The translations under genes were made by a program, and so were the position numbers. A stretch of DNA of 64,000 bases from Eledone cirrhosa (Eukaryota), in contig OZ024766.1 of assembly GCA_964016885.1 (NCBI GenBank), forward strand, positions 12,958,001 through 13,022,000, read 5' to 3'. Shown piece by piece: positions 2,182 through 36,081 of the stretch; position 1 is the stretch's first letter, and every line of letters starts with the position of its first letter. A model generated the notes under the pieces. That model had not been told where the DNA came from. It saw only the letters and a list, made by a program, of their open reading frames with translations, and did no database searches.

Positions 2182-2699
2182 CCCAAATTAAAATTAAGGG
2201 TTGTCATGTCTGAGAGACATGCACCATGCGTAGAATAAGCTGAAAGATTAGATCCGAGCATTACATATCAACTAGAAATAGATTGACATATATATATATA
2301 TATATAATAAATACATGAAACAATCACAGGGAATAATTTGTAAAGAATGTAGGCACACATAGCTAGGTAGGTAACTAATTAAAGCTTGACTAGAACTTCA
2401 AATATAGATACCTTTTAAAATGATTAATCTCCTTTGTATATATTTCTTTAAGTAAGAAATATATTTCACCTATTAATCCGTAAATCACAGCAGTTAAATT
2501 CTTGGATGTTCACCAAATGAGAAGAAAAATAACCATCTGCGTTTACACAGCAAATGCAAATCTGCGAATGATTTGAACCACTTGTTGCATTTTTTTTAAA
2601 ATACACTCGTTGAACAACGTCATCCCAGTGGCCTGAATAGGACCATCGACAGCCAGAAATAGCCAGAAATATAAATATAAATATATATATATGTTTATA

Positions 2700-2913
2700 T
2701 AATATAAGATCAAAAGATGGTTAAAGGAGTTCCATGTATTTTATTATGCGCATTTCAAAAACAAACATCATCATGCAATAATATTTGTGTTTTCATCAGA
2801 TAAAACAGGAGAACATGATATGAAGGCTAAAAAAACACTTGTGGATAGTGCAGTTTTAAATGCGCATAATAAAATACATGGAACTCCTTTAACCATCTTT
2901 TGATCTTATATTA
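2700..2913. mobile_element. Fold-back element with ~56-bp inverted arms containing the HHR; probable Penelope-like pseudo-LTR remnant (repeated in 5 units)
   Basis: 2700-2755 is the reverse complement of 2858-2913; the element lies between (TA)n tracts and carries the HHR. Confidence 0.7.
2739..2805 (-). ncRNA. Type I hammerhead ribozyme, copy 1
   Basis: Minus strand reads TTTTAT-CTGATGA-(stem II AAACACAAATATTAT..ATGATGTTTGTTTTT)-GAAA-TGCGCA-TA-ATAAAA. Canonical core, 6-bp stem I, palindromic stem III (ATGCGCAT), AUA cleavage triplet. Confidence 0.85.
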
Positions 2914-3059
2914 CGTATACTCCAGTCCTACAAACTGTAGAGTGCTTCTTATCCGATATCTGCATTGCTTTATTGTACTACAATAAAACTCACCTCCTAC
3001 ATTATATGTATATATATATATATATTCTCTTTTACTCTTTTAACGTCTTCCAGCGATCC

Positions 3060-3335
3060 AGTTGAGGCCATGCTGGGGCATGCCCTTGTTACACATTCTT
3101 TCTCCAACCTGTGTTGGTTGGCCATTTGGCAAAGAGGGGGTTCGTTGTTGCTGCCCTTAGGTTACCTTCGAACCATGCTGTGGGCTCATCCAGGATCCTG
3201 GTAACAGGGTGTCGAGATGTTCCTTGAAAACATCCACGTCCACACCATGCAGATCTCTCAAATTCCTTGGCAGCTTGTTGAAGAAGTGAGGGCCCTTGAA
3301 CCCCAGGTTATTGTAATACCTGCTCCTTATTCTGT
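3060..3335 (-). mobile_element. CR1/L2-like LINE 3' fragment (present in each unit)
   Basis: Translation RYYNNLGFKGPHFFNKLPRNLRDLHGVDVDVFKEHLDTLL resembles the C-terminus of CR1-group ORF2. Confidence 0.65.
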
Positions 3336-3957
3336 ATATATTTATAAGTATATATCTATATATGTGTGTGTGTGGTAGGAAGTATGGTAAGGAACGAGGT
3401 GGACCATAACGCACCAGATCACGCGATACTTTGGTTAGTAGATATATATATATATGTGAGTGTGTGTTAAGCTATTCTATTAAATCTACTCCAGGATATC
3501 ACTGGTACTATATTTTATCAACCCCTGAATTATGAAATCATTTCATTTTACGTCCCCTTTTCCCTGCTTGCAAGAGTGGGACAGGAACTGATTCTGGCTT
3601 GATTTCTACAGCTTGATGCCCTTCCTAAAACCAACCTCATTTACAGTGAGTGCTGGGTGATTTTTTGCCGTGGCACCTCTACGACCACTTTACAGTGGAA
3701 TGATAGGGACTCCAGTCCCTATCATCTCATTTCTACAGCTGAGTAAACTGGAGCAATTTGAAATAAAGTGTCTTGCTCAAGGAAACAACACATTAACCGG
3801 TCGGAGAATTGAACTCACAACCTTTCGATAAAGAATAATACAATTATAGAGATTATAAAAGATTATAAAAGAATAATACGTATTATTCCTTTCGAATACA
3901 ATAAAAGGCCTGCTGTTACAACTTTGGTATTTATTGAGGATATTGTGACTCGTTTAA

Positions 3958-4178
3958 CCCTTTAGCATTTAAACCGGCCATATCCGGCCAGAAATCTCTC
4001 ACTTTTTTCTGTTCAAACCGGCTGTAACTAGCCACTCATACTGACGTTAAGGTATTCTTCTCAAAATAAATAATATCAAAATCTCATAGATTCAATATTA
4101 TGTGAGATAACTATATAAGATAAAGTGTTTACTGTGAAACTACAATAGTAAATATAGAATAATGTAAGTGCTAAAGGG
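3958..4178. mobile_element. 221-bp piggyBac-type MITE (also starting at 9489, 14412, 19424, 24458, 29882)
   Basis: TTAA|CCCTTTAGCA...TGCTAAAGGG|TTAA: terminal inverted repeats with a TTAA target duplication. Confidence 0.85.
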
Positions 4179-4516
4179 TTAAATAACTTAAATTTACAAC
4201 TTCAAGGTAAAACACAGCTCGTAAATGAAATGTATAACCATATTGTTGTCTTTGAAAAAAAGCTACAGTTGTGGGAACATCAACTTTGAAATAAAAATTA
4301 TGTGCATTTTCCATCATTTCAAGGAGGGAAATCACAGGATTCAGAGGTATTTGTGAATATAATTCAAGATTTGAGAAATGAATAGTATAGTCGACACTCG
4401 AGATTAAATTTTAGCTTGTGTAATTTTCCATAATTATTCTTTTATGGCGTTCGTCCGGCCCGTGGAGGCAAAGAAGTTGGCAATCCCTGATCTACACCAA
4501 TGTTTTCCTGTTACAG

Positions 4517-4654
4517 TGTGCAGTAGTGGAAGACTTGGTGCCAACTGTGATCAGGTGTGTCATTGTGAAGATAACAACAGGTGGAATGTGGAATTAGGGA
4601 TCTGTTCAAGGGGTAGATGTGCTCCAGGTTATGAAAGAAACAGTTGTCAGAAAG
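4517..4654 (+). CDS. EGF-like (laminin/MEGF-type) exon, copy 1; carries C->W and G->R changes
   Basis: Acceptor ttttcctgttacAG and donor AG|GTTAGT; 138 nt, phase 1-1; encodes (V)CSSGRLGANCDQVCHCEDNNRWNVELGICSRGRCAPGYERNSCQK. Confidence 0.85.
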
Positions 4655-7171
4655 GTTAGTTATTTTCATATCTCAGCTTTTATCTCTCACCAGTCCAGGT
4701 ACTTTATTTTATCAACCCCAGTACATTACTGGTACTTTATTTTATTAACCCCAGTACATTACTGGTAGTTTACTTTATCAACCCCAGTTCGTTACTGGTA
4801 CTTTACTTTATCAACCCCAGTACGTTACTGGTACTTTACTTTATCAACCCCAGTACGTTACTGGTACTTTACTTTATCAACCCCAGTACGTTACTGGTAC
4901 TTTACTTTATCAACCCTGTTAGGATGAAAGCCAGAGCTATAACTTCAGTAGGATTTGAACCCAGTTACGGCCCTTTACGTTCTGAGTTCAAATCCCATCA
5001 AGGTAAGCTTTGCCCTTCATCCTAACTGGGTTGATAAAATAAAGTACCAGTAACACACTGGGGTCAATCAACACCCCTTCCCCAAATGTGTTGGCCTTGC
5101 ATCTAAATCAGAAACCATTAAAATAATCTCTAAATTTCTAGTCAACAATCAATATTATTAGTTAGTAATATTAGTTAATAATTGTTTCTACGTTAGGCAC
5201 AAGGCCAGCAATTACCCCAGTGTATTACTGCTACTTTATTTTATCGACCCCGTAAGGATGAAAGGCAAAGTTAACCTCGGTGGGATTTGAAATCAGAATG
5301 GCAAGGGCCGTAACTCTATGCATCAAAGCATGGCGTCCCACCCTCCACTGATACTGCCAATCCACTGCCATTAATGTTATTATTGACTAATAATATTAAC
5401 TAATTATATTAATTAATAATATTAACTAATTATATTGACTAATAATATTAACTAATAATATTAACTAATAATATTAACTAATTATATTAACTAATAACAT
5501 TAACTAATAATATTAACTAATTATATTAACTAATAATATTAACTAATTATATTAACTAATAATATTAACTAATAATATTAACTAATTATATTAACTAATA
5601 ATATTAACTAATAATATTAACTAATTATATTAACTAATAATATTAACTAATTATATTAACTAATAATATTAACTAATAATATTTACTAATTATATTGACT
5701 AAGGGCCGTAACTCTATGCATCAAAGCATGGCGTCCGACGCTCCACCGATACTGCCAATCCACCGAATAATATTAACTAATTCAAATCCCGCCGAGGTTA
5801 ACTTTGCCCTTCATCCTTACGGGGTTGATAAAATAAAGTACCAGTAATACACTGGGGTAATTGCTGGCCTTGTGCCTAATGTAAAAATTATTTAAATTAT
5901 TAGTGAATATTATTAGTTGATAATATTAGTTAATATTATTAGTTAATATAATTAGTGAATGTTATTAGTTAATATTATTAGGTGAGAATATTAGTTAATA
6001 TTATTAGTAATATAATTAGTCAATATAATTAGTTAATATTATTAGTCAATATAATTAGTTAATGAGGTTAACTTTGCCTTTCATCCTTACGGGGTCGATA
6101 AAATAAAGTACCAGTAATGTACTGGGTAATTGCTGGCCTTGTGGCTAATGTAGAAATAATTATTAGTTCATATAATTAGTTACTATTATTAGTAAATATA
6201 ATTAGTCAATATAATTAGTCAATATAATTAGTCAATATAATTAGTCAATATAATTAGTCAATATAATTAGTCAATATAATTAGTCAATATTATTAGTCAA
6301 TATTATTAGTAAATATAATTAGTCAATATAATTAGTCAATATAATTAGTCAATATAATTAGTCAATATTATTAGTAAATATAATTAGTCAATATTATTAG
6401 TAAATATAATTAGTCAATATAATTAGTCAATATAATTAGTCAATATAATTAGTCAATATAATTAGTCAATATTATTAGTCAATATTATTAGTAAATATAA
6501 TTAGTCAATATTATTAGTAAATATAATTAGTCAATATAATTAGTCAATATAATTAGTCAATATAATTAGTCAATATAATTAGTCAATATAATAAGTCAAT
6601 ATTATTAGTCAATATTATTAGTAAATATAATTAGTCAATATTATTAGTCAATATTATTAGTAAATATAATTAGTCAATATAATTAGTCAATATAATTAGT
6701 CAATATTATTAGTCAATATTATTAGTAAATATAATTAGTCAATATAATTAGGCAATATTATTAGTCAATATTATTCGTAAATATAATTAGTCAATATAAT
6801 TAGAAACAATTATATTTTATCAACCCCAGAATGTTGGTTGTGTGGGGTTTTTTATTTCTGTATGAAGTTCAGGCAGTCAGCCATACAGACACATGATATG
6901 AGTGTGCAACATTGTAGCTATGTTTCTGTCAGTTGAAAGCAAGTCTTTGTATTAACTTTTGAGAAAGTCACACCCAGTTAAATTACATGACCTTAGGTAA
7001 GTGTATGGGAGAGACAGGAGCAGAGATAGAGAGAGATAGAGAGAGAGAGAGGGGGTGAGAGAAAGAGAGGGATATCGAGAGAGGGAGATAGAGGGAGAGA
7101 AAGAGATGTGAGAGACAGAGATAGAAAGTAAAATGTAGTAGTAATTCTAATGTTGTATTATATATATTTAT

Positions 7172-7216
<45 letters not shown>

Positions 7217-7485
7217 GAGGTTATATTTAATTTGTTGGGATTCAATAAGCTTAAAAATGTTTATAACTGATATAAAGCACTCAACAGTTTGCCTTGGTTG
7301 CCCTTGAAATATGTATAATAAAATAAATATGGTTTTATAAATATAGTTTCCATTTATTAATATATTATTTATATATATATATATATAAATATATAATAAG
7401 GTTCCTATTACCCACTCTACTACCTCAAGTATTGAGTACTTTGGTGCGTTATGGTCCACCTGGTTCCTTACCACATTTCCTTCGT

Positions 7486-7540
<55 letters not shown>

Positions 7541-7663
7541 AGGAAAAGAGTCAGGACCCCAACTGCTGATCTCTGGCCGGAGCTCAGCTGTTGGGTTCCT
7601 GGCTCTTTTCCTATTACCCACTCTTCTACCCTAAGTATTGAGTACTCTGAGATATATATATAT

Positions 7664-7697
<34 letters not shown>

Positions 7698-8268
7698 GTA
7701 TATCTATATATCCAAAATTAAAATTAAGGGTTGTCATGTCTGAGAGACATGCACCATGCGTAGAATAAGCTGAAAGATTAGATCCGAGCATTACATATCA
7801 ACTAGAAATAGATTGACATATATATATATATATATAATAAATACATGAAACAATCACAGGGAATAATTTGTAAAGAATGTAGGCACACATAGCTAGGTAG
7901 GTAACTAATTAAAGCTTGACTAGAACTTCAAATATAGATACCTTTTAAAATGATTAATCTCCTTTGTATATATTTCTTTAAGTAAGAAATATATTTCACC
8001 TATTAATCCGTAAATCACAGCAGTTAAATTCTTGGATGTTCACCAAATGAGAAGAAAAATAACCATCTGCGTTTACACAGCAAATGCAAATCTGCGAATG
8101 ATTTGAACCACTTGTTGCATTTTTTTAAAAATACACTCGTTGAACAACGTCATCCCAGTGGCCTGAATAGGACCATCGACAGCCAGAAATAGCCAGAAAT
8201 ATAAATATAAATATATATATATGTATATATAATATAAGATCAAAAGATGGTTAAAGGAGTTCCATGTA

Positions 8269-8335
8269 TTTTATTATGCGCATTTCAAAAACAAACATCA
8301 TCATGCAATAATATTTGTGTTTTCATCAGATAAAA
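8269..8335 (-). ncRNA. Type I hammerhead ribozyme, copy 2
   Basis: Same sequence as 2739-2805. Confidence 0.85.
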
Positions 8336-10048
8336 CAGGAGAACATGATATGAAGGCTAAAAAAACACTTGTGGATAGTGCAGTTTTAAATACGCATAAT
8401 AAAATACATGGAACTCCTTTAACCATCTTTTGATCTTATATTATGTATACTCCAGTCCTACAAACTGTAGAGTGCTTCTTATCCGATATCTGCATTGCTT
8501 TATTGTACTACAATAAAACTCACCACCTACATTATATGTATATATATATATATATTCTCTTTTACTCTTTTAACGTGTTCCAGCGATCCAGTTGAGGCCA
8601 TGCTGGGGCATGCCCTTGTTACACATTCTTTCTCCAACCTGTGTTGGTTGGCCATTTGGCAAAGAGGGGGTTCGTTGTTGCTGCCCTTAGGTTACCTTCG
8701 AACCATGCTGTGGGCTCATCCAGGATCCTGGTAACAGGGTGTCGAGATGTTCCTTGAAAACATCCACGTCCACACCATGCAGATCTCTCAAATTCCTTGG
8801 CGGCTTGTTGAAGAGGTGAGGGCCCTTGAACCCCAGGTTATTGTAATACCTGCTCCTTATTCTGTATATATTTATAAGTATATATCTATATATGTGTGTG
8901 TGTGTGGTAGGAAGTATGGTAAGGAACGAGGTGGACCATAACGCACCAGATCACGCGATACTTTGGTTAGTAGATATATATATATATGTGAGTGTGTGTT
9001 AAGCTATTCTATTAAATCTACTCCAGGATATCACTGGTACTATATTTTATCAACCCCTGAATTATGAAATCATTTCATTTTACGTCCCCTTTTCCCTGCT
9101 TGCAAGAGTGGGACAGGAACTGATTCTGGCTTGATTTCTACAGCTTGATGCCCTTCCTAAAACCAACCTCATTTACAGTGAGTGCTGGGTGATTTTTTGC
9201 CGTGGCACCGCTACGACCACTTTACAGTGGAATGATAGGGACTCCAGTCCCTATCATCTCATTTCTACAGCTGAGTAAACTGGAGCAATTTGAAATAAAG
9301 TGTTTGCTCAAGGAAACAACACGTTAACCGGTCGGAGAATTGAACTCACAACCTTTCGATAAAGAATAATACAATTATAGAGATTATAAAAGATTATAAA
9401 AGAATAATACGTATTATTCCTTTCGAATACAATAAAAGGCCTGCTGTTACAACTTTGGTATTTATTGAGGATATTGTGACTCGTTTAACCCTTTAGCATT
9501 TAAACCGGCCATATCCGGCCAGAAATCTCTCACTTTTTTCTGTTCAAACCGGCTGTAACTAGCCACTCATACTGACGTTAAGGTATTCTTCTCAAAATAA
9601 ATAATATCAAAATCTCATAGATTCAATATTATGTGAGATAACTATATAAGATAAAGTGTTTACTGTGACATTACAATAGTAAATATAGAGTAATGTAAGT
9701 GCTAAAGGGTTAAATAACTTAAATTTACAACTTCAAGGTAAAACTCAGCTCGTAAATGAAATGTATAACCATATTGTTGCCTTTGAAAAAAAGCTACAGT
9801 TGTGGGAACATCAACTTTGAAATAAAAATTATGTGCATTTTCCATCATTTCAAGGAGGGAAATCACAGGATTCAGAGGTATTTGTGAATATAATTCAAGA
9901 TTTGAGAAATGAATAGTATAGTCAACACTCGAGATAAAAATTTTAGCTTGTGTAATTTTCCATAATTATTCTTTTATGGCGTTCGTCCGGCCCGTGGAGG
10001 CAAAGAAGTTGGCAATCCCTGATCTACACCAATGTTTTCCTGTTACAG

Positions 10049-10186
10049 TGTGCAGTAGTAGAAGACTTGGTGCCAACTGTGATCAGGTGTGTCATTGTGA
10101 AGATAACAACAGGTGTAATGTGGAATTAGGGATCTGTTCAAGGGGTAGATGTGCTCCAGGTTATGAAGGAAACAGTTGTCAGAAAG
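10049..10186 (+). CDS. EGF-like exon, copy 2 (G->R)
   Basis: Same splice sites, 138 nt; CSSRRLGANCDQVCHCEDNNRCNVELGICSRGRCAPGYEGNSCQK. Confidence 0.87.
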
Positions 10187-10229
10187 GTTAGTTATTTTCA
10201 TATCTCAGCTTTTATCTCTCACCAGTCCA

Positions 10230-11076
10230 GGTACTTTATTTTATCAACCCCAGTACATTACTGGTACTTTATTTTATCAATCCCAGTACATTACTGGTAC
10301 TTTATTTTGTCAACCCCAGTACGTTACTGGTACTTTACTTTATCAACCCCAGTACGTTACTGGTACTTTATTTTATCAACCCCAATACATTACTGGTACT
10401 TTACTTTATCAACCCCAGTACATTCCTGGTACTTTACTTTATCAACCCCAGTACGTTACTAGTACTTTATTTTATCAACTCCAGTACATTACTGGTACTT
10501 TATTTTATCAACCCCAGTACGTTACTGGTACTTTACTTTATCAACCCCAGTACGTTACTGATACTTTACTTTATCAAATCCAGTACATTACTGGTACTTT
10601 ACTTTATCAACTCCAGTACATTACTGGTACTTTACTTTATCAACCCAAGAACGTTACAGGTACTTTACCTTATCAACCCCAGTACATTACTGGTACTTTA
10701 CTTTATCAACCCCAGTACATTACTGGTACCTTACTTTATCAACCCCCCGTACATTACTGGTACTTTACTTTATCAACCCCAGTACGTTACTGGTACTTTA
10801 CTTTATCAACCCCAGTACGTTACTGATACTTTACTTTATCAAACCCAGTACATTACTGGTACTTTACTTTATCAACCCCAGTACATTACTGGTACTTTAC
10901 TTTATCAACCCAAGAACGTTACAGGTACTTTACTTTATCAACCCCAGTACATTACTGGTACTTTACTTTATCAACCCCAGTACATTACTGGTACCTTACT
11001 TTATCAACCCAAGAACGTTACAGGTACTTTACTTCATCAACCCCAGTACGTTACTGGTACTTTACTTTATCAACCC
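10230..11076. repeat. 33-bp SINE-derived VNTR downstream of each EGF exon (also ~4698-4917, 15151-15900, 20163-20946, 25198-25746, 30621-30841)
   Basis: Unit CAACCCCAGTAC(A/G)TTACTGGTACTTTACTTTAT is the reverse complement of the SINE segment ataaaataaagtaccagtaatacactgggg; ~6 to ~25 copies per locus. Confidence 0.92.
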
Positions 11077-12221
11077 TGTTAGGATGAAAGCCAGAGCTAT
11101 AACTTTAGTAGGATTTGAACCCAGTTACGGCCCTTTACGTTCTGAGTTCAAATCCCATCAAGGTAAGCTTTGCCTTTCATCCTTACTGGGTTGATAAAAT
11201 AAAGTACCAGTAACACACTGGGGTCAATCAACACCCCTTCCCCAAATGTGTTGGCCTTGCATCTAAATCAGAAACCATTAAAATAATCTCTAAATTTCTA
11301 GTCAACAATCAATATTATTAGTTAGAAATATTAGTTAATAATTGTTTCTACGTTAGGCACAAGGCCAGCAATTACCCCAGTGTATTACTGCTACTTTATT
11401 TTATCGACCCCGTAAGGATGAAAGGCAAAGTTAACCTCGGTGGGATTTGAACTCAGAATGGCAAGGGCCGTAACTCTATGCATCAAAGCATGGCGTCCGA
11501 CCCTCCACTGATACTGCCAATCCACTGCCATTAATATTATTATTGACTAATAATATTAACTAATAATATTAACTAATATATAATTAGACAATATAATTAG
11601 TCAATATTATTAGCCAATACTATTAGTAAATATAATAAGTCAATATAATAAGTCAATATAATTAGTCAATATAATTAGTCAATATAATTAGTCAATATAA
11701 TTAGTCAATATAATTAGTCAATATTATTACTCAATATAATTAGCCAATATAATTAGTCAATATAATTAGTCAATATTATTACTCAATATTATTAGTAAAT
11801 ATAATTAGTCAATATAATTAGAAACAATTATATTTTATCAACCCCAGAATGTTGGTTGTGTGGGTTTTTTATTTCTGTATGAAGTTCAGACAGTCAGCCA
11901 TACAGACACATGATATGAGTGTGCAACATCGTAGCTATGTTTCTGTCAGTTGAAAGCAAGTCTTTGTATTAACTTTTAGAGAAAGTCACACCCAGTTAAA
12001 TTACATGACCTTAGGTAAGTGTATGGGAGAGACAGGAGGAGAGATAGAGAGAGACAGAGAGAGAGAGAAAGAGAGGGATATCGAGAGAGGGAGATAGAGG
12101 GAGAGAAAGAGATGTGTGAGAGACAGAGAGAGAGGGAGAGAGAGAAAGTGGGAAGAATGGAGACTAAAAGTGGAAGAGGCAGAGAGATAGAAAGTAAAAT
12201 GTAGTAGTAATTCTAATGTTG

Positions 12222-12270
<49 letters not shown>

Positions 12271-12409
12271 GAGGTTATATTTAATTTGTTGGGATTCAAT
12301 AAGCTTAAAAATGTTTATAACTGATATAAAGCACTCAACAGTTTGCCTTGGTTGCCTTGAAATATGTATAATAAAATAAATATGGTTTTATAAATATAGT
12401 TTCCATTTA

Positions 12410-12446
<37 letters not shown>

Positions 12447-12569
12447 AGGAAAAGAGTCAGGACCCCAACTGCTGATCTCTGGCCAGAGCTCAGCTGTTGG
12501 GTTCCTGGCTCTTTTCCTATTACCCACTCTTCTACCCTAAGTATTGAGTACTCTGAGATATATATATAT

Positions 12570-12621
<52 letters not shown>

Positions 12622-13178
12622 CCCAAATTAAAATTAAGGGTTGTCATGTCTGAGAGACATGCACCATGCGTAGAATAAGCTGAAAGATTAGATCCGAGCA
12701 TTACATATCAACTAGAAATAGATTGACATATATATATATATATATAATAAATACATGAAACAATCACAGGGAATAATTTGTAAAGAATGTAGGCACACAT
12801 AGCTAGGTAGGTAACTAATTAAAGCTTGACTAGAACTTCAAATATAGATACCTTTTAAAATGATTAATCTCCTTTGTATATATTTCTTTAAGTAAGAAAT
12901 ATATTTCACCTATTAATCCGTAAATCACAGCAGTTAAATTCTTGGATGTTCACCAAATGAGAAGAAAAATAACCATCTGCGTTTACACAGCAAATGCAAA
13001 TCTGCGAATGATTTGAACCACTTGTTGCATTTTTTTAAAAATACACTCGTTGAACAACGTCATCCCAGTGGCCTGAATAGGACCATCGACAGCCAGAAAT
13101 AGCCAGAAATATAAATATAAATATATATATATGTATATATAATATAAGATCAAAAGATGGTTAAAGGAGTTCCATGTA

Positions 13179-13245
13179 TTTTATTATGCGCATTTCAAAA
13201 ACAAACATCATCATGCAATAATATTTGTGTTTTCATCAGATAAAA
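13179..13245 (-). ncRNA. Type I hammerhead ribozyme, copy 3
   Basis: Same sequence as 2739-2805. Confidence 0.85.
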
Positions 13246-14971
13246 CAGGAGAACATGATATGAAGGCTAAAAAAACACTTGTGGATAGTGCAGTTTTAAA
13301 TGCGCATAATAAAATACATGGAACTCCTTTAACCATCTTTTGATCTTATATTATGTATACTCCAGTCCTACAAACTGTAGAGTGCTTCTTATCCGATATC
13401 TGCATTGCTTTATTGTACTACAATAAAACTCACCTCCTACATTATATGTATATATATATATATATATATATTCTCTTTTACTCTTTTAACGTGTTCCAGC
13501 GATCCAGTTGAGGCCATGCTGGGGCATGCCCTTGTTACACATTCTTTCTCCAACCTGTGTTGGTTGGCCATTTGGCAAAGAGGGGGTTCGTTGTTGCTGC
13601 CCTTAGGTTACCTTCGAACCATGCTGTGGGCTCATCCAGGATCCTGGTAACAGGGTGTCGAGATGTTCCTTGAAAACATCCACGTCCACACCATGCAGAT
13701 CTCTCAAATTCCTTGGCAGCTTGTTGAAGAGGTGAGGGCCCTTGAACCCCAGGTTATTGTAATACCTGCTCCTTATTCTGTATATATTTATAAGTATATA
13801 TCTATATATGTGTGTGTGTGTGTGTGTGGTAGGAAGTATGGTAAGGAACGAGGTGGACCATAACGCACCAGATCACGCGATACTTTGTTTAGTAGATATA
13901 TATATATATGTGAGTGTGTGTTAAGCTATTCTATTAAATCTACCCCAGGATATCACTGGTACTATATTTTATCAACCCCTGAATTATGAAATCATTTCAT
14001 TTTACGTCCCCTTTTCCCTGCTTGCAAGAGTGGGACAGGAACTGATTCTGGCTTGATTTCTACAGCTTGATGCCCTTCCTAAAACCAACCTCATTTACAG
14101 TGAGTGCTGGGTGATTTTTTGCCGTGGCACCTCTACGACCACTTTACAGTGGAATGATAGGGACCCCAGTCCCTATCATCTCATTTTTACAGCTGAGTAA
14201 ACTGGAGCAATTTGAAATAAAGTGTCTTGCTCAAGGAAACAACACATTACCCGGTCTGAGAATTGAACTCACAACCTTTCGATAAAGAATAATACAATTA
14301 TAGAGATTATAAAAGATTATAAAAGAATAATACATATTATTCCTTTCGAATACAATAAAAGGCCTGCTGTTACAACTTTGGTATTTATTGAGGATATTGT
14401 GACTCGTTTAACCCTTTAGCATTTAAACCGGCCATATCCGGCCAGAAATCTCTCACTTTTTTCTGTTCAAACCGGCTGTAACTAGCCACTCATACTGACG
14501 TTAAGGTATTCTTCTCAAAATAAATATTATCAAAATCTCATAGATTCAATATTATGTGAGATAACTATATAAGATAAAGTGTTTACTGTGACATTACAAT
14601 AGTAAATATAGAGTCATGTAAGTGCTAAAGGGTTAAATAACTTAAATTTACAACTTCAAGGTAAAACTCAGCTCGTAAATGAAATGTATAACCATATTGT
14701 TGCCTTTGAAAAAAAGCTACAGTTGTGGGAACATCAACTTTGAAATAAAAATTATGTGCATTTTCCATCATTTCAAGGAGGGAAATCACAGGATTCAGAG
14801 GTATTTGTGAATATAATTCAAGATTTGAGAAATGAATAGTATAGTCGACACTCGAGATAAAAATTTTAGCTTGTGTAATTTTCCATAATTATTCTTTTAT
14901 GGCGTTCGTCCGGCCCATGGAGGCAAAGAAGTTGGCAATCCCTGATCTACACCAATGTTTTCCTGTTACAG

Positions 14972-15109
14972 TGTGCAGTAGTGGAAGACTTGATGCCAAC
15001 TGTGATCAGGTGTGTCATTGTGAAGATAACAGCAGGTGTAATGTGGAATTAGGGATCTGTTCAAGGGGTAGATGTGCTCCAGGTTATGAAGGAAACAGTT
15101 GTCAGAAAG
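14972..15109 (+). CDS. EGF-like exon, copy 3 (G->D, N->S)
   Basis: Same splice sites, 138 nt; CSSGRLDANCDQVCHCEDNSRCNVELGICSRGRCAPGYEGNSCQK. Confidence 0.87.
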
Positions 15110-18098
15110 GTTAGTTATTTTCATATCTCAGCTTTTGTCTCTCACCAGTCCAGGTACTTTATTTTATCAACCCCAGTACGTTACTGGTACTTTATTTTAT
15201 CAACCCCAGTACATTACTGGTACTTTACTTTATCAACCCCAGTACGTTACTGGTACTTTATTTTATCAATCCCAGTACATTACTGGTACTTTATTTTATC
15301 AACCCCAGTACGTTACTGGTACTTTACTTTATCAACCCCAGTACGTTACTGGTACTTTACTTTATCAACCCCAGTACATTACTGGTACTTTACTTTATCA
15401 ACCCCAGTACGTTACTGGTACTTTACTTTATCAACCCCCGTACATTACTGGTACTTTACTTTATCAACCCCAGTACGTTACTGGTACTTTACTTTATCAA
15501 CCCCAGTACGTTACTGGTACTTTACTTTATCAACCCCCGTACATTACTGGTACTTTACTTTATCAACCCCCGTACATTACTGGTACTTTACTTTATCAAC
15601 CCCAGTACGTTACTGGTACTTTACTTTATCAAACCCAGTACATTACTGATACTTTACTTTATCAAACCCAGTACATTACTGGTACTTTACTTTATCAACC
15701 CCAGTACATTACTGGTACTTTACTTTATCAACCCCAGTATGTTACTGGTACTTTACTTTATCAACCCCAGTACATTACTGGTACTTTACTTTATCAACCC
15801 CAGTACATTACTGGTACCTTACTTTATCAACCCAAGAACGTTACAGGTACTTTACTTCATCAAACCCAGTACGTTACTGGTACTTTACTTTATCAACCCT
15901 GTTAGGATGAAAGCCAGAGCTATAACTTTAGTAGGATTTGAACCCAGTTACGGCCCTTTACGTTCTGAGTTCAAATCCCATCAAGGTAAGCTTTGCCTTT
16001 CATCCTTACTGGGTTGATAAAATAAAGTACCAGTAACACACTGGGGTCAATCAACACCCCTTCCCCAAATGTGTTGGCCTTGCATCTAAATCAGAAACCA
16101 TTAAAATAATCTCTAAATTTCTAGTCAACAATCAATATTATTAGTTAGTAATATTAGTTAATAATTGTTTCTACGTTAGGCACAAGGCCAGCAATTACCC
16201 CAGTGAATTACTGCTACTTTATTTTATCGACCCCGTAAGGATGAAAGGCAAAGTTAACCTCGGTGGGATTTGAACTCAGAATGGCAAGGGCCGTAACTCT
16301 ATGCATCAAAGCATGGCGTCCGACCCTCCACTGATACTGCCAATCCACTGCCATTAATATTATTATTGACTAATAATATTAACTAATAATATTAACTAAT
16401 TATATTAACTAATAATATTAACTAATTATATTGACTAATAATATTAACTAATAATATTAACTAAATAATATTAACTAATAATATTAACTAATAATATTTA
16501 CTAATTATATAACTCTATGCATCAAAGCAAGGCGTCCGACGCTCCACCAATACTGCCAATCCACCGAATAATATTAACTAATTCAAATCCCGCCGAGGTT
16601 AACTTTGCCTTTCATCCTTACGGGGTTGATAAAATAAAGTACCAGTAATACACTGGGGTAATTGCTGGCCTTGTGCCTAATGTAAAAATTATTTAAATTA
16701 TTAGTGAATATTATTAGATGATAATATTAGTTAATATTATTAGTTAATATAATTAGTGAATGTTATTAGTTAATATTATTAGGTGATAATATTAGTTAAT
16801 ATTATTAGTTAATATAATTAGTCAATATAATTAGTTAATGAGGTTAACTTTGCCTTTCATCCTTACGGGGTCGATAAAATAAAGTACCAGTAATGTACTG
16901 GGTAATTGCTGGCCTTGAGCCTAACGTAGAAACAATTATTAGTTCATATAATTAGTTACTATTATTAGTAAATATAATTAGTCAATATAATTAGTAAATA
17001 TAATTAGTCAATATAATTAGTCAATATAATTAGTAAATATAATTAGTCAATATAATTCGTCAATATAATTAGTCAATATTATTAGTCAATATTATTAGTA
17101 AATATTATTAGTAAATATAATTAGTCAATATAATTAGTCAATATTATTAGTAAATATAATTAGTCAATATTATTAGTCAATATAATTAGTCAATATAATT
17201 AGTCAATATAATTAGTCAATATAATTAGTCAATATAATTAGTCAATATAATAAGTCAATATTATTAGTCAATATTATTAGTAAATATAATTAGTCAATAT
17301 TATTAGTCAATATTATTAGTCAATATTATTAGTAAATATAATTAGTCAATATAATTAGTCAATATTATTAGTCAATATTATTAGTCAATATTATTAGTAA
17401 ATATAATTAGTCAATATAATTAGTCAATATTATTAGTCAATATTATTAGTCAATATTATTCGTAAATATAATTAGTCAATATAATTAGTCAATATTATTA
17501 GTCAATATTATTAGTCAATATTATTAGTAAATATAATTAGTCAATATAATTAGAAACAATTATATTTTATCAACCCCAGAATGTTGGTTGTGTGGGGTTT
17601 TTTATTTCTGTATGAAGTTCTGGCAGTCAGCCATATAGACACATGATATGAGTGTGCAACATTGTAGCTATGTTTCTGTCAGTTGAAAGCAAGTCTTTGT
17701 ATTAACTTTTAGAGAAAGTCACACCCAGTTAAATTACATGACCTTAGGTAAGTGTATGGGAGAGACAGGAGGAGAGATAGAGAGAGATAGAGAGAGAGAG
17801 GGGGGTGAGAGAAAGAGAGGGATATCGAGAGAGGGAGATAGAGGGAGAGAAAGAGATGTGAGAGACAGAGATAGAAAGTAAAATGTAGTAGTAATTCTAA
17901 TGTTGTATTATATATATTTATATATATATATATAAATATATATATATGCAGAGGTTATATTTAATTTGTTGGGATTCAATAAGCTTAAACATTTTTATAA
18001 CTGATATAAAGCACTCAACAGTTTGCCTTGGTTGCCCTTGAAATATGTATAATAAAATAAATATGGTTTTATAAATATAGTTTCCATTTATTAATATA

Positions 18099-18156
<58 letters not shown>

Positions 18157-18455
18157 AGGAAAAGAGTCAGGACCCCAACTGCTGATCTCTGGCCGGAGCT
18201 CAGCCGTTGGGTTCCTGGCTCTTTAAGTAAGAAATATATTTCACCTATTAATCCGTAAATCACAGCAGTTAAATTCTTGGATGTTCACCAAATGAGAAGA
18301 AAAATAACCATCTGCGTTTACACAGCAAATGCAAATCTGCGAATGATATGAACCACGTGTTGCATTTTTTTAAAAATACACTCGTTGAACAACGTCATCC
18401 CAGTGGCCTGAATAGGACCATCGACAGCCAGAAATAGCCAGAAATATAAATATAA

Positions 18456-18486
<31 letters not shown>

Positions 18487-19982: not shown

Positions 19983-20120
19983 TGTGCAGTAGTGGAAGAC
20001 TTGGTGCCAACTGTGATCAGGTGTGTCATTGTGAAGATAACAACAGGTGTAATGTGGAATTAGGGATCTGTTCAAGGGGTAGATGTGCTCCAGTTTATGA
20101 AGGAAACAGTTGTCAGAAAG
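19983..20120 (+). CDS. EGF-like exon, copy 4 (G->V)
   Basis: Same splice sites, 138 nt; ends ...RCAPVYEGNSCQK. Confidence 0.87.
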
Positions 20121-23100: not shown

Positions 23101-23121
23101 TCCATTTATTAATATATTATT

Positions 23122-23190
<69 letters not shown>

Positions 23191-23489
23191 AGGAAAAGAG
23201 TCAGGACCCCAACTGCTGATCTCTGGCCGGAGCTCAGCCGTTCGGTTCCTGGCTCTTTAAGTAAGAAATATATTTCACCTATTAATCCATAAATCACAGC
23301 AGTTAAATTCTTGGATGTTCACCAAATGAGAAGAAAAATAACCATCTGCGTTTACACAGCAAATGCAAATCTGCGAATGATTTGAACCACTTGTTGCATT
23401 TTTTTAAAAATACACTCGTTGAACAACGTCATCCCAGTGGCCTGAATAGGACCATCGACAGCCAGAAATAGCCAGAAATATAAATATAA

Positions 23490-23520
<31 letters not shown>

Positions 23521-25017: not shown

Positions 25018-25155
25018 TGTGCAGTAGTGGAAGACTTGGTGCCAACTGTGATCAGGTGTGTCATTGTGAAGATAACAACAGGTGTAATGTGGAATTAGGG
25101 ATCTGTTCAAGGGGTAGATGTGCTCCAGGTTATGAAGGAAACAGTTGTCAGAAAG
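25018..25155 (+). CDS. EGF-like exon, copy 5 (consensus)
   Basis: Same splice sites, 138 nt; all 8 cysteines intact. Confidence 0.88.
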
Positions 25156-27696
25156 GTTAGTTGTTTTCAGATCTCAGCTTTTATCTCTCACCAGTCCAGG
25201 TACTTTATTTTATCAACCCAAGTACATTACTGGTACTTTATTTTATCAATCCCAGTACATTACTGGTACTTTATTTTGTCAACCCCAGTACTTTACTGGT
25301 ACTTTACTTTATCAACCCCAGTACGTTACTGGTACTTTACTTTATCAACCCCAGTACATTACTGGTACTTTACTTTATCAACCCCGTACATTACTGGTAC
25401 TTTACTTTATCAACCCCAGTACGTTACTGGTACTTTACTTTATCAACCCCCGTACATTACTGGTACTTTACTTTATCAACCCCAGTACGTTACTGGTACT
25501 TTACTTTATCAACCCCCGTACATTACTGCTACTTTACTTTATCAACCCCAGTACGTTACTGGTACTTCACCTTATCAACCCCAGTACGTTACTGATACTT
25601 TACTTTATCAAACCCAGTACATTACTGGTACTTTACTTTATCAACCCCAGTACATTACTGGTACCTTACTTTATCAACCCAAGAACGTTACAGGTACTTT
25701 ACTTTATCAACCCCAGTACGTTACTGGTACTTTACTTTATCAACCCTGTTAGGATGAAAGCCAGAGCTATAACTTCAGTAGGATTTGAACCCAGTTACGG
25801 CCCTTTACGTTCTGAGTTCAAATCCCATCAAGGTAAGCTTTGCCTTTCATCCTTACTGGGTTGATAAAATAAAGTACCAGTAACACACTGGGGTCAATCA
25901 ACACCCCTTCCCCAAATGTGTTGGCCTTGCATCTCAATCAGAAACCATTAAATAATCTCTAAATTTCTAGTCAACAATCAATATTATTAGTTAGTAATAT
26001 TAGTTAATAATTGTTTCTACGTTAGGCACAAGGCCAGCAATTACCCCAGTGAATTACTGCTACTTTATTTTATCGACCCCGTAAGGATGAAAGGCAAAGT
26101 TAACCTCGGTGGGATTTGAACTCAGAATGGCAAGGGCCGTAACTCTATGCATCAAAGCATGGCGTCCGACCCTCCACTGATACTGCCAATCCACTGCCAT
26201 TAATATTATTATTGACTAATAATATTAACTAATAATATTAACTAATTATATTGACTAATAATATTAACTAATAATATTAACTAAATAATATTAACTAATA
26301 ATATTAACTAATAATATTAACTAATAATATTAACTAATTATATTAACTAATAATATTAACTAATTATATTAACTAATAATATTAACTAATAATATTTACT
26401 AATTATATAACTCTATGCATCAAAGCATGGCGTCCGACGCTCCACCGATACTGACAATCCACCGAATAATATTAACTAATTCAAATCCCGCCGAGGTTAA
26501 CTTTGCCTTTCATCCTTACGGGGTTGATAAAATAAAGTACCAGTAATACACTGGGGTAATTGCTGGCCTTGTGCCTAATGTAAAAATTATTTAAATTATT
26601 AGTGAATATTATTAGTTGATAATATTAGTTAATATTATTAGTTAATATAATTAGTGAATGTTATTAGTTAATATTATTAGGTGCTAATATTAGTTAATAT
26701 TATTAGTTAATACAATTATTCAATATAATTAGTTAATGAGGTTAACTTTGCCTTTCATCCTTACGGGGTCGATAAAATAAAGTACCAGTAATGTACTGGG
26801 TAATTGCTGGCCTTGTGCCTAACGTAGAAACAATTATTAGTTCATATAATTAGTTACTATTATTAGTAAATATAATTAGTCAATATAATTAGTAAATATA
26901 ATTAGTAAATATAATTAGTCAATATAATTAGTCAATATAATTAGTAAATATAATTAGTCAATATAATTCGTCAATATTATTAGTCAATATTATTAGTAAA
27001 TATTATTAGTAAATATAATTAGTCAATATAATTAGTCAATATAATTAGTCAATATAATTTGTCAATATTATTAGTCAATACTATTAGTAAATATAATTAG
27101 TCAATATAATAAGTCAATATAATTAGTCAATATAATTAGTCAATATAATTAGTCAATATAATTAGTCAATATAATTAGTCAATATTATTACTCAATATAA
27201 TTAGTCAATATAATTAGTCAATATAATTAGTCAATATTATTACTCAATATTATTAGTAAATATAATTAGTCAATATAATTAGAAACAATTATATTTTATC
27301 AACCCCAGAATGTTGGTTGTGTGGGTTTTTTATTTCTGTATGAAGTTCAGACAGTCAGCCATACAGACACATGATATGAGTGTGCAACATCGTAGCTATG
27401 TTTCTGTCAGTTGAAAGCAAGTCTTTGTATTAACTTTTAGAGAAAGTCACACCCAGTTAAATTACATGACCTTAGGTAAGTGTATGGGAGAGACAGGAGG
27501 AGAGATAGAGAGAGAGGGGGCGATAGAGACAGAGAGAGAGAGAAAGAGAGGGATATCGAGAGAGGGAGATAGAGGGAGAGAAAGAGATGTGAGAGAGACA
27601 GAGAGAGAGGGAGAGAGAGAAAGTGGGAAGAATGGAGACTAAAAGTGGAAGAGGCAGAGAGATAGAAAGTAAAATGTAGTAGTAATTCTAATGTTG

Positions 27697-27727
<31 letters not shown>

Positions 27728-27868
27728 CAGAGGTTATATTTAATTTGTTGGGATTCAATAAGCTTAAAAATGTTTATAACTGATATAAAGCACTCAACAG
27801 TTTGCCTTGTTTGCCTTGAAATATGTATAATAAAAAAAATATGGTTTTATAAATATAGTTTCCATTTA

Positions 27869-27917
<49 letters not shown>

Positions 27918-28046
27918 ATGTATAGGAAAAGAGTCAGGACCCCAACTGCTGATCTCTGGTCAGAGCTCAGCTGTTGGGTTCCTGGCTCTTTTCCTATTAC
28001 CCACTCTTCTACCCTAAGTATTGAGTACTCTGGGATATATATATAT

Positions 28047-28098
<52 letters not shown>

Positions 28099-28655
28099 CC
28101 CAAATTAAAATTAAGGGTTGTCATGTCTGAGAGACATGCACCATGCGTAGAATAAGCTGAAAGATTAGATCCGAGCATTACATATCAACTAGAAATATAT
28201 TGACATATATATATATATATATAATAAATACATGAAACAATCACAGGGAATAATTTGTAAAGAATGTAGACACACATAGCTAGGTAGGTAACTAATTAAA
28301 GCTTGACTAGAACTTCAAATATAGATACCTTTTAAAATGATTAATCTCCTTTGTATATATTTCTTTAAGTAAGAAATATATTTCACCTATTAATCCGTAA
28401 ATCACAGCAGTTAAATTCTTGGATGTTCACCAAATGAGAAGAAAAATAACGATCTGCGTTTACACAGCAAATGCAAATCTGCGAATGATTTGAACCACGT
28501 GTTGCATTTTTTTTAAAATACACTCGTTGAACAAGGTCATCCCAGTGGCCTGAATAGGACCATCGACAGCCAGAAATAGCCAGAAATATAAATATAAATA
28601 TATATATATGTATATATAATATAAGATCAAAAGATGGTTAAAGGAGTTCCATGTA

Positions 28656-28722
28656 TTTTATTATGCGCATTTCAAAAACAAACATCATCATGCAATAATA
28701 TTTGTGTTTTCATCAGATAAAA
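28656..28722 (-). ncRNA. Type I hammerhead ribozyme, copy 4
   Basis: Same sequence as 2739-2805. Confidence 0.85.
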
Positions 28723-30440
28723 CAGGAGAACATGATATGAAGGCTAAAAAAACACTTGTGGATAGTGCAGTTTTAAATGCGCATAATAAAATACATGGAA
28801 CTCCTTTAACCATCTTTTGATCTTATATTATGTATACTCCAGTCCTACAAACTGTAGAGTGCTTCTTATCCGATATCTGCATTGCTTTATTGTACTACAA
28901 TAAAACTCACCTCCTACATTATATGTATATATATATATATATATTCTCTTTTACTCTTTTAACGTGTTCCAGCGATCCAGTTGAGGCCATGCTGGGGCAT
29001 GCCCTTGTTACACATTCTTTCTCCAACCTGTGTTGGTTGGCCATTTGGCAAAGAGGGGGTTCATTGTTGCTGCCCTTAGGTTACCTTCGAACCATGCTGT
29101 GGGCTCATCCAGGATCCTGATAACAGGGTGTCGAGATGTTCCTTGAAAACATCCACGTCCACACCGTGCAGATCTCTCAAATTCCTTGGCAGCTTGTTGA
29201 CGAGGTGAGGGCCCTTGAACCCCAGGTTATTGTAATACCTGCTCCTTATTCTGTATATATTTATAAGTATATATCTATATATGTGTGTGTGTGTGTGTGG
29301 TAGGAAGTATGGTAAGGAACGAGGTGGACCATAACGCACCAGATCACGCGATACTTTGGTTAGTAGATATATATATATATGTGAGTGTGTGTTAAGCTAT
29401 TCTATTAAATCTACCCCAGGATATCACTGGTACTATATTTTATCAACCCCTGAATTATGAAACATTTCATTTTACGTCCCCTTTTCCCTGCTTTCAAGAG
29501 TGGGACAGGAACTGATTCTGGCTTGATTTCTACAGCTTGATGCCCTTCCTAAAACCAACCTCATTTACAGTGAGTGCTGGGTGATTTTTTGCCGTGGCAC
29601 CTCTACGACCACTTTACAGTGGAATGATAGGGACCCCAGTCCCTATCATCTCATTTTTACAGCTGAGTAAACTGGAGCAATTTGAAATAAAGTGTCTTGC
29701 TCAAGGAAACAACACATTACCCGGTCTGAGAATTGAACTCACAACCTTTCGATAAAGAATAATACAATTATAGAGATTATAAAAGATTATAAAAGAATAA
29801 TACATATTATTCCTTTCGAATACAATAAAAGGCCTGCTTTTACAACTTTGGTATTTATTGAGGATATTGTGACTCGTTTAACCCTTTAGCATTTAAACCG
29901 GCCATATCCGGCCAGAAATCTCTCACTTTTTTCTGTTCAAACCGGCTGTAACTAGCCACTCATACTGACGTTAAGGTATTCTTCTCAAAATAAATAATAT
30001 CAAAATCTCATAGATTCAATATTATGTGAGATAACTATATAAGATAAAGTGTTTACTGTGACATTACAATAGTAAATATAGAGTAATGTAAGTGCTAAAG
30101 GGTTAAATAACTTAAATTTACAACTTCAAGGTAAAACTCAGCTCGTAAATGAAATGTATAACCATATTGTTGCCTTTGAAAAAAAGCTACAGTTGTGGGA
30201 ACATCAACTTTGAAATAAAAATTATGTGCATTTTCCATCATTTCAAGGAGGGAAATCACAGGATTCAGAGGTATTTGTGAATATAATTCAAGATTTGAGA
30301 AATGAATAGTATAGTCAACACTCGAGATTAAATTTTAGCTTGTGTAATTTTCCATAATTATTCTTTTATGGCGTTCGTCCGGCCCGTGGAGGCAAAGAAG
30401 TTGCCAATCCCTGATCTACACCAATGTTTTCCTGTTACAG

Positions 30441-30578
30441 TGTGCAGTAGTGGAAGACTTGGTGCCAACTGTGATCAGGTGTGTCATTGTGAAGATAACA
30501 ACAGGTGTAATGTGGAATTAGGGATCTGTTCAAGGGGTAGATGTGCTCCAGGTTATGAAGGAAACAGTTGTCAGAAAG
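30441..30578 (+). CDS. EGF-like exon, copy 6 (consensus)
   Basis: Same splice sites, 138 nt; all 8 cysteines intact. Confidence 0.88.
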
Positions 30579-32626
30579 GTTAGTTATTTTCATATCTCAG
30601 CTTTTATCTCTCACCAGTCCAGGTACTTTAATTTATCAACCCCAGTACGTTACTGGTACTTTACTTTATCAACCCCAGTACGTTACTGATACTTTACTTT
30701 ATCAAACCCAGTACATTACTGGTACTTTACTTTAACAACCCCAGTACATTACTGGTACCTTACTTTATCAACCCAAGAACGTTACAGGTACTTTACTTCA
30801 TCAACCCCAGTACGTTACTGGTACTTTACTTTATCAACCCTGTTAGGATGAAAGCCAGAGCTATAACTTCAGTAGGATTTGAACCCAGTTACGGCCCTTT
30901 ACGTTCTGAGTTCAAATCCCATCAAGGTAAGTTTTGCCTTTCATCCTTACTGGGTTGATAAAATAAAGTACCAGTAACACACTGGGGTCAATCAACACCC
31001 CTTCCCCAAATGTGTTGGCCTTGCATCTAAATCAGAAACCATTAAAATAATCTCTAAATTTCTAGTCAACAATCAATATTATTAGTTAGAAATATTAGTT
31101 AATAATTGTTTCTACGTTAGGCACAAGGCCAGCAATTACCCCAGTGTATTACTGCTACTTTATTTTATCGACCCCGTAAGGATGAAAGGCAAAGTTAACC
31201 TCGGTGGGATTTGAACTCAGAATGGCAAGGGCCGTAACTCTATGCATCAAAGCATGGCGTCCGACCCTCCACTGATACTGCCAATCCACTGCCATTAATA
31301 TTATTATTGACTAATAATATTAACTAATAATATTAACTAATTATATTAACTAATAATATTAACTAATTATATTGACTAATAATATTAACTAATAATATTA
31401 ACTAAATAATATTAACTAAATAATATTAACTAATAATATTAACTAATAATATTAACTAATTATATTAACTAATAATATTAACTAATTATATTAACTAATA
31501 ATATTAACTAATAATATTTACTAATTATATAACTCTATGCATCAAAGCATGGCGTCCGACGCTCCACCGATACTGCCAATCCACCGAATAATATTAACTA
31601 ATTCAAATCCCGCCGAGGTTAACTTTGCCTTTCATCCTTACGGGGTTGATAAAATAAAGTACCAGTAATACACTGGGGTAATTGCTGGCCTTGTGCCTAA
31701 TGTAAAAATTATTTAAATTATTAGTGAATATTATTAGTTGATAATATTAGTTAATATTATTAGTTAATATAATTAGTGAATGTTATTAGTTAATATTATT
31801 AGGTGATAATATTAGTTAATATTATTAGTTAATATAATTAGTCAATATAATTAGTTAATGAGGTTAACTTTGCCTTTCATCCTTACGGGGTCGATAAAAT
31901 AAAGTACCAGTAATGTACTGGGTAATTGCTGGCCTTGTGCCTAACGTAGAAACAATTATTAGTTCATATAATTAGTTACTATTATTAGTAAATATAATTA
32001 GTCAATATAATTAGTCAATATAATTAGTCAATATAATTAGTCAATATAATTAGTCAATATTATTAGTCAATACTATTAGTAAATATAATTAGTCAATATA
32101 ATAAGTCAATATAATTAGTCAATATTATTACTCAATATAATTAGTCAATATAATTAGTCAATATAATTAGTCAATATTATTACTCAATATTATTAGTAAA
32201 TATAATTAGTCAATATAATTAGAAACAATTATATTTTATCAACCCCAGAATGTTGGTTGTGTGGGTTTTTTATTTCTGTATGAAGTTCAGACAGTCAGCC
32301 ATACAGACACATGATATGAGTGTGCAACATCGTAGCTATGTTTCTGTCAGTTGAAAGCAAGTCTTTGTATTAACTTTTAGAGAAAGTCACACCCAGTTAA
32401 ATTACATGACCTTAGGTAAGTGTATGGGAGAGACAGGAGGAGAGATAGAGAGAGAGGGGGCGATAGAGACAGAGAGAGAGAGAAAGAGAGGGATATCGAG
32501 AGAGGGAGATAGAGGGAGAGAAAGATGTGAGAGAGAGAGGGAGAGAGAGAAAGTGGGAAGAATGGAGACTAAAAGTGGAAGAGGCAGAGAGATAGAAAGT
32601 AAAATGTAGTAGTAATTCTAATGTTG

Positions 32627-32671
<45 letters not shown>

Positions 32672-32814
32672 GAGGTTATATTTAATTTGTTGGGATTCAA
32701 TAAGCTTAAAAATGTTTATAACTGATATAAAGCACTCAACAGTTTGCCTTGGTTGCCTTGAAATATGTATAATAAAATAAATATGGTTTTATAAATATAG
32801 TTTCCATTTATTAA

Positions 32815-32851
<37 letters not shown>

Positions 32852-32974
32852 AGGAAAAGAGTCAGGACCCCAACTGCTGATCTCTGGCCAGAGCTCAGCT
32901 GTTGGGTTCCTGGCTCTTTTCCTATTACCCACTCTTCTACCCTAAGTATTGAGTACTCTGAGATATATATATAT

Positions 32975-33025
<51 letters not shown>

Positions 33026-33583
33026 TCCCAAATTAAAATTAAGGGTTGTCATGTCTGAGAGACATGCACCATGCGTAGAATAAGCTGAAAGATTAGATCC
33101 GAGCATTACATATCAACTAGAAATAGATTGACATATATATATATATATATAATAAATACATGAAACAATCACAGGGAATAATTTGTAAAGAATGTAGGCA
33201 CACATAGCTAGGTAGGTAACTAATTAAAGCTTGACTAGAACTTCAAATATAGATACCTTTTAAAATGATTAATCTCCTTTGTATATATTTCTTTAAGTAA
33301 GAAATATATTTCACCTATTAATCCGTAAATCACAGCAGTTAAATTCTTGGATGTTCACCAAATGAGAAGAAAAATAACCATCTGCGTTTACACAGCAAAT
33401 GCAAATCTGCGAATGATTTGAACCACTTGTTGCATTTTTTTAAAAATACACTCGTTGAACAACGTCATCCCAGTGGCCTGAATAGGACCATCGACAGCCA
33501 GAAATAGCCAGAAATATAAATATAAATATATATATATGTATATATAATATAAGATCAAAAGATGGTTAAAGGAGTTCCATGTA

Positions 33584-33650
33584 TTTTATTATGCGCATTT
33601 CAAAAACAAACATCATCATGCAATAATATTTGTGTTTTCATCAGATAAAA
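33584..33650 (-). ncRNA. Type I hammerhead ribozyme, copy 5
   Basis: Same sequence as 2739-2805. Confidence 0.85.
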
Positions 33651-35156: not shown

Positions 35157-35189
35157 GTTAAAAGAATAGAGGTGTAACACACAAGTTAT

Positions 35190-35575: not shown

Positions 35576-35586
<11 letters not shown>
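35190..35586. repeat. Near-perfect spacer-less palindrome, ~200-bp arms
   Basis: Centre ctctga|tcagag at 35391/35392; one 8-nt indel and one mismatch between the arms. Confidence 0.93.
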
Positions 35587-35940: not shown

Positions 35941-36005
<65 letters not shown>

Positions 36006-36081
36006 CAATAATAATGGGTTCAAATCTCAGGCGATCATTTACAATGAAATAGCTCAAAGGAAGACTATTCTGAGCCGTGTA

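Follow-up and report, generated by a model that had tools for sequence, protein, structure and literature searches.

Why do five identical hammerhead ribozymes (HHRs) recur at roughly 5-kb spacing on the minus strand of an array of EGF-like exons, and would they cut the RNA in which they are embedded? The question is raised by a 64-kb window of the Eledone cirrhosa genome (contig OZ024766.1, positions 12,958,001 to 13,022,000; the coordinates below are those of the window), for which an earlier note had suggested that tandem amplification supplies the ribozymes with dimer partners in cis, so that antisense transcripts could be cut into unit-length RNAs complementary to the exon. Our analysis indicates a real motif with an ordinary cause. 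We hold with high confidence that the HHR is the pseudo-long terminal repeat (pLTR) ribozyme of a high-copy Penelope-like element (PLE) of the Hydra clade, carried by one intronic insertion that was likely duplicated passively, and that it is predicted not to cleave; this passenger PLE end would be kept silent by folding back on itself.

A motif scan of both strands of the window recovered five identical type I HHRs of 71 nt on the minus strand, at 2737-2807, 8267-8337, 13177-13247, 28654-28724 and 33582-33652 (spaced by 5530, 4910, 15477 and 4928 bp), in agreement with the earlier note, as were the CUGAUGA/GAAA core and the 8-nt palindromic stem III. Each is laid out as an 8-bp stem I, CUGAUGA, a 36-nt stem II region, GAA, the palindrome AUGCGCAU that constitutes stem III, and A at position 17, with the scissile bond at 2745|2744 and the equivalent positions; the CUGANGA and GAAA core with an NUH cleavage triplet, as expected of the type I class, is present. 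The scan returned six matches in the window against a mean of 0.01 (maximum 1) in 100 local first-order Markov resamplings, the sixth being an HHR on the plus strand at 45531-45569 that is unrelated to the other five. The antisense placement is equally real, the exons lying on the plus strand of ~5-kb units and the HHRs on the minus strand, ~1.7 kb upstream of the EGF-like exon. Folding predicts that stems I, II and III can form in the isolated 71 nt (stem III as a palindromic dimer) and that they are disfavoured in the genomic context. The G10.1-C11.1 pair, described as highly conserved (PMC4209133; statements on published work refer throughout to the consulted sections of the sources cited), is absent, stem II opening with an A-U pair and containing a C.U mismatch. 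A comparison with the Rfam hammerhead models, which the earlier note had put forward as a check, lent no support: no hammerhead family reached its gathering threshold across the whole window, and none appeared at E<=10 within 2500-3100. The Rfam entry MIR5048 was rejected, its score of 33.6 bits against a cut-off of 160 merely reflecting an inverted repeat.

That inverted repeat, which the earlier note does not mention, belongs to the insertion in which every HHR resides, an element of ~301 bp flanked by (TA)n tracts and composed of two outward-pointing, inverted, 5′-truncated PLE pLTR ends. In the first copy (2699..3002), arm A (2699..2856, minus strand) comprises ~50 nt of the PLE 3′ untranslated region (UTR), the HHR and then the family's 'short' 3′ end, and is 92-99% identical to the pLTRs beside PLE open reading frames (ORFs). 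Arm B (2857..3002, plus strand) is an inverted copy that begins inside HHR stem III, without the CUGAUGA core, and continues for another ~90 nt to the 'long' end of the family (the 83-91-nt tail); its initial segment, 2857..2914 on the plus strand, matches the complement of 2699-2756 at 56/58 positions. The insertion is bounded by a target duplication of ~11 bp with a distinctive G, the left copy of which has one substitution in the 2699..3002 unit. The remaining HHRs lie, in the same order, within copies at 8232..8532 (99.0%), 13142..13442, 28619..28919 and 33547..33847 (99.7% each), the unit holding the last of these ending at 34,686, ahead of its exon. The same element, ends included, is also found on C1, C2 and C4 between unrelated flanks. 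A miniature inverted-repeat element of a DNA transposon was considered and rejected, the inverted arms being PLE pLTR sequence of unequal length.

The parent family is abundant. Exact matches in the genome number 7,664 for the 26-nt variant found in the array and 1,996 for a sister variant, against none for reversed-pattern controls, which gives at least 9,660 HHR-bearing ends, and the earlier note's likening of the motif to the minimal HHRs of PLEs is borne out in that it is a piece of a PLE whose family has thousands of dispersed copies. In the sampled copies an intact core was seen in 65/69, a figure that we do not use as evidence as the search patterns include part of the core, and the 38 ends scored there as 'short' include at least one that is mis-scored and two that are unanchored. 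A complete arrangement is found at locus L073 (G000:C1:12.25 Mb; 12,250,568-12,252,994), where direct pLTRs 3,709 bp apart surround an open frame of 808 codons, forming the pLTR-ORF-pLTR partial tandem with an HHR in the pLTR. At a second locus (L130), an open frame of 821 codons adjoins a pLTR that is 98.6-98.7% identical to the array arms. Both ORFs (lengths stop to stop) are intact, and they represent two subfamilies. A (CA)n/(TA)n tract is also seen inside the L073 3′ UTR.

Among 8,000 candidates scored, 37 homologues of the PLE protein were identified, and 21 of them were aligned with it. The reverse transcriptase (RT) motifs FDI, MG, YRDDGL and LD and the endonuclease (EN) and linker motifs are near-invariant in the 22 sequences, and the RT motifs are followed by conserved IYE..YFG and FKARLYNH, which at the motif level point to a C-terminal GIY-YIG-type EN. 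These domain calls rest on the motifs of PMC8557442 and on precomputed Pfam labels of the homologues. The Hydra-clade signature DKT (not DKG) occurs as SDKT at residue 132, and all residues of the CxCX5C linker and of the CxxC and CxH around E and N that characterise the clade are conserved in 22/22; the RWK motif reads RWI in the PLE ORF (P0001), the homologue columns being R in 21/22, W in 19/22 and K in 18/22. Insertion into (TA)n, a further Hydra-clade trait, is likewise found in this family. Of the 14 inverted long insertions examined, which were picked because they showed paired matches, 13 combine a short end with a long end on the opposite side, and the window element is built in the same way; the tail, of 83-91 nt, is on one side only. 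Judged by its motifs, and the RWK variant apart, the family appears to fit the Hydra clade.

The published Hydra-clade PLEs with a C-terminal EN (PMC8557442) share with it a single ORF with DKT, the CxCX5C linker and CxxC and CxH around E and N, a pLTR with a canonical HHR, insertion into (TA)n, and inverted 5′-truncated copies with a one-sided tail. The present family differs in having RWI for RWK, a period of 3.7 kb rather than one generally below 3 kb, and a tail of 83-91 nt rather than the 30-40 bp given for PLEs. File S1 of that paper, the only report found in our literature search on cephalopod or octopus HHRs, lists Hydra-1_Obim, a Hydra family of Octopus bimaculoides with a (TA)n preference, to which our family is likened by clade description and (TA)n preference, not by sequence identity. 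The PLE tail has been attributed to two internal RT start sites, and HHR cleavage was reported to be dispensable for PLE insertion in vitro (PMC11167929). With the minimal type I HHRs of PLEs (PMC4209133), the window copies have in common a long helix II, a palindromic helix III, truncated dispersed copies and opposite-strand pairs 100-700 bp apart; unlike those, they have an A-U pair at the base of stem II and an 8-nt stem III palindrome, and have been multiplied by host exon duplication. Very active, and with intact ORFs and a tail of unusual length, this Hydra-clade family would be a good substrate for studies of PLE priming. The array HHR itself is of little weight, being one of thousands of PLE ends, multiplied by the host.

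How the element came to occupy the array can be read from the units that lack it. There are seven unit positions in the window, and at two of them (18444..18485 and 23478..23519) the HHR is missing and only a (TA)n tract with a single copy of the target sequence is found. Across C27, which holds the window, and C19, 27 of 44 units are filled (61%) and 17/44 are empty, a set that omits one filled C19 unit missed by the search anchor. All filled units examined have one junction in common, and in the empty C27 units the ~11-bp target sequence is present once. This shared junction implies that the orientation and spacing of the HHRs derive from one insertion followed by duplication of the array, and the antisense orientation, as a single event, carries no statistical weight. 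Diversity across the array copies of the element is 0.32%, compared with about 1% in the flanks, while the left flank is more diverse in empty (1.38%) than in filled units (0.54%) and the most diverged units, those on C19, are empty. The array element is 99.3% identical to dispersed copies, from loci that were picked by exact pattern and are hence biased toward close relatives, which indicates that insertion and array are of about the same young age. Units with and without the insertion are found both with and without a neighbouring 367-bp indel (all four combinations), implying exchange among units. Taken from sequence comparison, these observations favour a single recent insertion into an array that already existed, the empty units being sites that were probably never occupied. 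The PLE protein would have nicked a (TA)n tract and begun reverse transcription at its two fixed start points; early termination of both would have left a short arm and a long, inverted one, and unequal crossing-over, conversion and segmental duplication could then have shuffled filled and empty units through the C27 and C19 arrays. The presence or absence of the element thereby offers a marker for the turnover of a large EGF-exon array.

Whether the HHR would cut in this setting was addressed by folding. For the isolated 71-nt HHR, the catalytic dimer is predicted at -31.9 kcal/mol, two catalytic monomers at -12.0 and two free monomers at -21.2 kcal/mol, so that the preference for dimers stressed in the earlier note is upheld for the ribozyme on its own (-31.9 vs -21.2 kcal/mol). 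In the whole insertion, stem I is predicted never to form (P(stem I)=0), N17 is almost always paired (P(N17 unpaired)=0.002) and the catalytic fold is penalised by 30.5 kcal/mol, with or without flanks; in arm A alone it is disfavoured by 7.8 kcal/mol. During antisense read-through, the complementary arm would be made first and would pair with stem III, the cleavage site and the 3′ strand of stem I, locking the cleavage site in a predicted 56-bp hairpin. The model thus predicts that cleavage is disabled by the insertion's own fold-back. Unit-length antisense RNAs are unlikely on the same modelling, since each such product needs a downstream HHR reached by read-through that includes the inverted arm, where it is predicted to be sequestered. 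The sense pre-mRNA lacks the catalytic core and, with the cleavage site of the antisense RNA predicted to be locked, the insertion is likely close to neutral.

Several observations weigh against this account. Pfam and PDB searches with the PLE ORF and its homologues returned nothing significant. The inactivity of the ribozyme is itself predicted; transcription that began within arm A (downstream of the inverted arm) would in the model yield RNA that escapes the hairpin, and PLE HHRs can be protein-assisted (PMC11167929). Across 27 array copies the HHR contains just one of the six variable columns of the element, owing to a single C19 copy, a count without statistical power at 0.3% diversity. 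As to the history, empty C27 units have a less diverse right flank (0.22%) than filled units do (0.87%), and a tree of the flanks requires four state changes with 3/23 branches supported and the direction undecided. These last two points are shared with the alternative that survives best, in which the element is again a passenger, with the HHR-less units arising by true deletion, through recombination between target copies or TA slippage and possibly under selection against the insertion. Precise excision would give the same junction as an unfilled site. That the element is less diverse than its flanks, that the left flank is more diverse where the element is absent, that the most diverged units (C19) are empty and that dispersed copies are so nearly identical all speak for unfilled sites instead, and we regard deletion as possible but clearly the less probable history, at perhaps one chance in a few; it would alter the history of the element, not its identity. 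The earlier note was thus right that the HHR may be only a passenger, whereas its 'loss from two units' probably has the direction wrong, given that these units match the pre-insertion site, with the caveat of the unsettled tree.

Far less probable is the proposal with which we began, that antisense RNA of the array is cut by HHRs dimerising in cis into ~5-kb unit RNAs or circles that are complementary to the EGF exon and regulate the gene. It draws on an intact core, stem I and palindromic stem III, on the predicted preference of the isolated ribozyme for the dimer fold, and on the published dimer-dependent cleavage of metazoan type I HHRs (PMC4209133, PMC7229834). However, the five HHRs stem from a single insertion, so their common orientation is one event, their spacing is irregular, 17/44 units have no HHR to offer as a partner, and read-through to a downstream HHR must first pass that copy's inverted arm, with the cleavage site predicted to be buried in the 56-bp hairpin. 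At ~150-450 bp, published retrozyme units are far shorter than 5 kb (PMC7229834), the minimal HHRs of PLEs have low activity in vitro, even as dimers (PMC4209133), and for an Anolis PLE the accounts in PMC4209133 and PMC11167929 give no RNA ends at the cleavage site. We therefore consider the proposal very improbable. Contigs from four public runs (one study, showing neither ends nor strand) contained no joint across the insertion among the matches listed, which speaks neither for nor against expression, and our literature search found nothing that unites a hammerhead ribozyme, an intron, antisense and tandem exon duplication. Just as little credence is given to a domesticated ribozyme, that is, a young PLE end that spread through EGF arrays on two chromosomes and cuts antisense RNAs regulating a multi-EGF family; if this were true, cutting would be helped by the PLE protein or transcription would start inside the pLTR. 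That the repeated units are an assembly artefact, as their ~99% identity and richness in microsatellites might suggest, is no less implausible, the units differing by single-nucleotide variants, indels and the presence of segments in all four combinations, and public-run contigs covering the unit intron and exon at a summed word depth near 1,000 in X1-X3 (one study, where depth is not copy number and the evidence is weak).

Tandem type I HHRs with a palindromic stem III are also the hallmark of non-LTR retrozymes and satellite HHR repeats (PMC7229834; bioRxiv 10.64898/2026.07.22.740005). Unlike these, which have a non-coding monomer of 150-450 bp with an HHR in every unit, the array has a 5-kb host exon-intron unit with an HHR in 61% of units, and it was rejected as a non-LTR retrozyme on account of its coding exon and of the HHR being confined to 27/44 units. 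A true member of the class is seen elsewhere in the window, the segment at 45,264-45,739 being a copy of a 311-bp non-LTR retrozyme family and including the plus-strand HHR at 45531-45569. This family has 1,146 exact 37-nt matches in the genome, and the first 100 places listed include eight arrays, all with a 311-bp period and with a minus block preceding a plus block. In six fetched arrays (L121-L126) and the window copy, the outer ends fall at monomer positions 173-174 and 200-208, in (TA)n, and the fetched monomers are 99-100% identical. The arrays carry the insertion signature of PLEs, namely inverted blocks, a one-sided tail of 26-35 nt and a (TA)n target, which suggests that circular or multimeric retrozyme RNA is reverse-transcribed by a PLE. 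The monomer has no significant similarity to L073 (best E 0.58). Retrozymes have been tied to PLEs by co-occurrence and pLTR homology (PMC7229834, PMC7761336, bioRxiv 10.64898/2026.07.22.740005), and an insertion anatomy of this kind was not found in a limited search of the literature. As these arrays bear on the question of which enzyme mobilises animal retrozymes, we consider the copy at 45,264-45,739 the best lead in the window.

The host array consists of 138-nt EGF-like exons on the plus strand, in frame, with AG/GT splice sites and phase 1/1; six are in the window, at 4517..4654 (with a Cys>Trp change in this copy), 10049..10186, 14972..15109, 19983..20120, 25018..25155 and 30441..30578. 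The assignment reflects a match to Pfam EGF_STAB1-2 at E=5.7e-4, under the curated cut-off of that family. The array reaches 35 kb to the left of the window, an extension that the earlier note does not mention, and comprises 13 exons and 14 unit positions, nine of them filled, over C27:12.923-12.993 Mb. The exon pattern has 82 matches in the genome, among them two sister arrays on C27 (13.98-14.12 and 14.49-14.60 Mb) and small arrays on C19; the three C27 arrays contain 13, about 27 and 21 exons, and the 40 exons recovered from the first two all have an open frame and intact splice sites. On C16, C20, C22 and C27, single-copy versions of the exon are preceded by clusters of related EGF-repeat exons with short introns, and the arrays are a young expansion of one EGF-like exon. 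A search for the name of the host gene with one 45-aa exon gave no candidate. Each unit also holds a decayed coding-like fragment on the minus strand (3041-3330 and equivalents), which we take to resemble the C terminus of the RT of a long interspersed element (LINE), together with 33-bp and 13-bp minisatellites (4698-4916, 10230-11076, 15153-15899; 379-1384, 5381-6803 etc.), whose copy number is highly variable between units otherwise 99% identical.

Beyond the array, near-perfect fold-back elements between TA tracts were recognised by eye at 35157-35580, 36002-36625 and 42640-43060, and these are probably truncated, inverted ends of other PLE families. A broken RT-like frame, LINE-like by eye, lies at 37780-38560 on the plus strand, and tandem arrays of 40, 21 and 77 bp occupy 51071-51835, 54292-55581 and 59739-60304, respectively.

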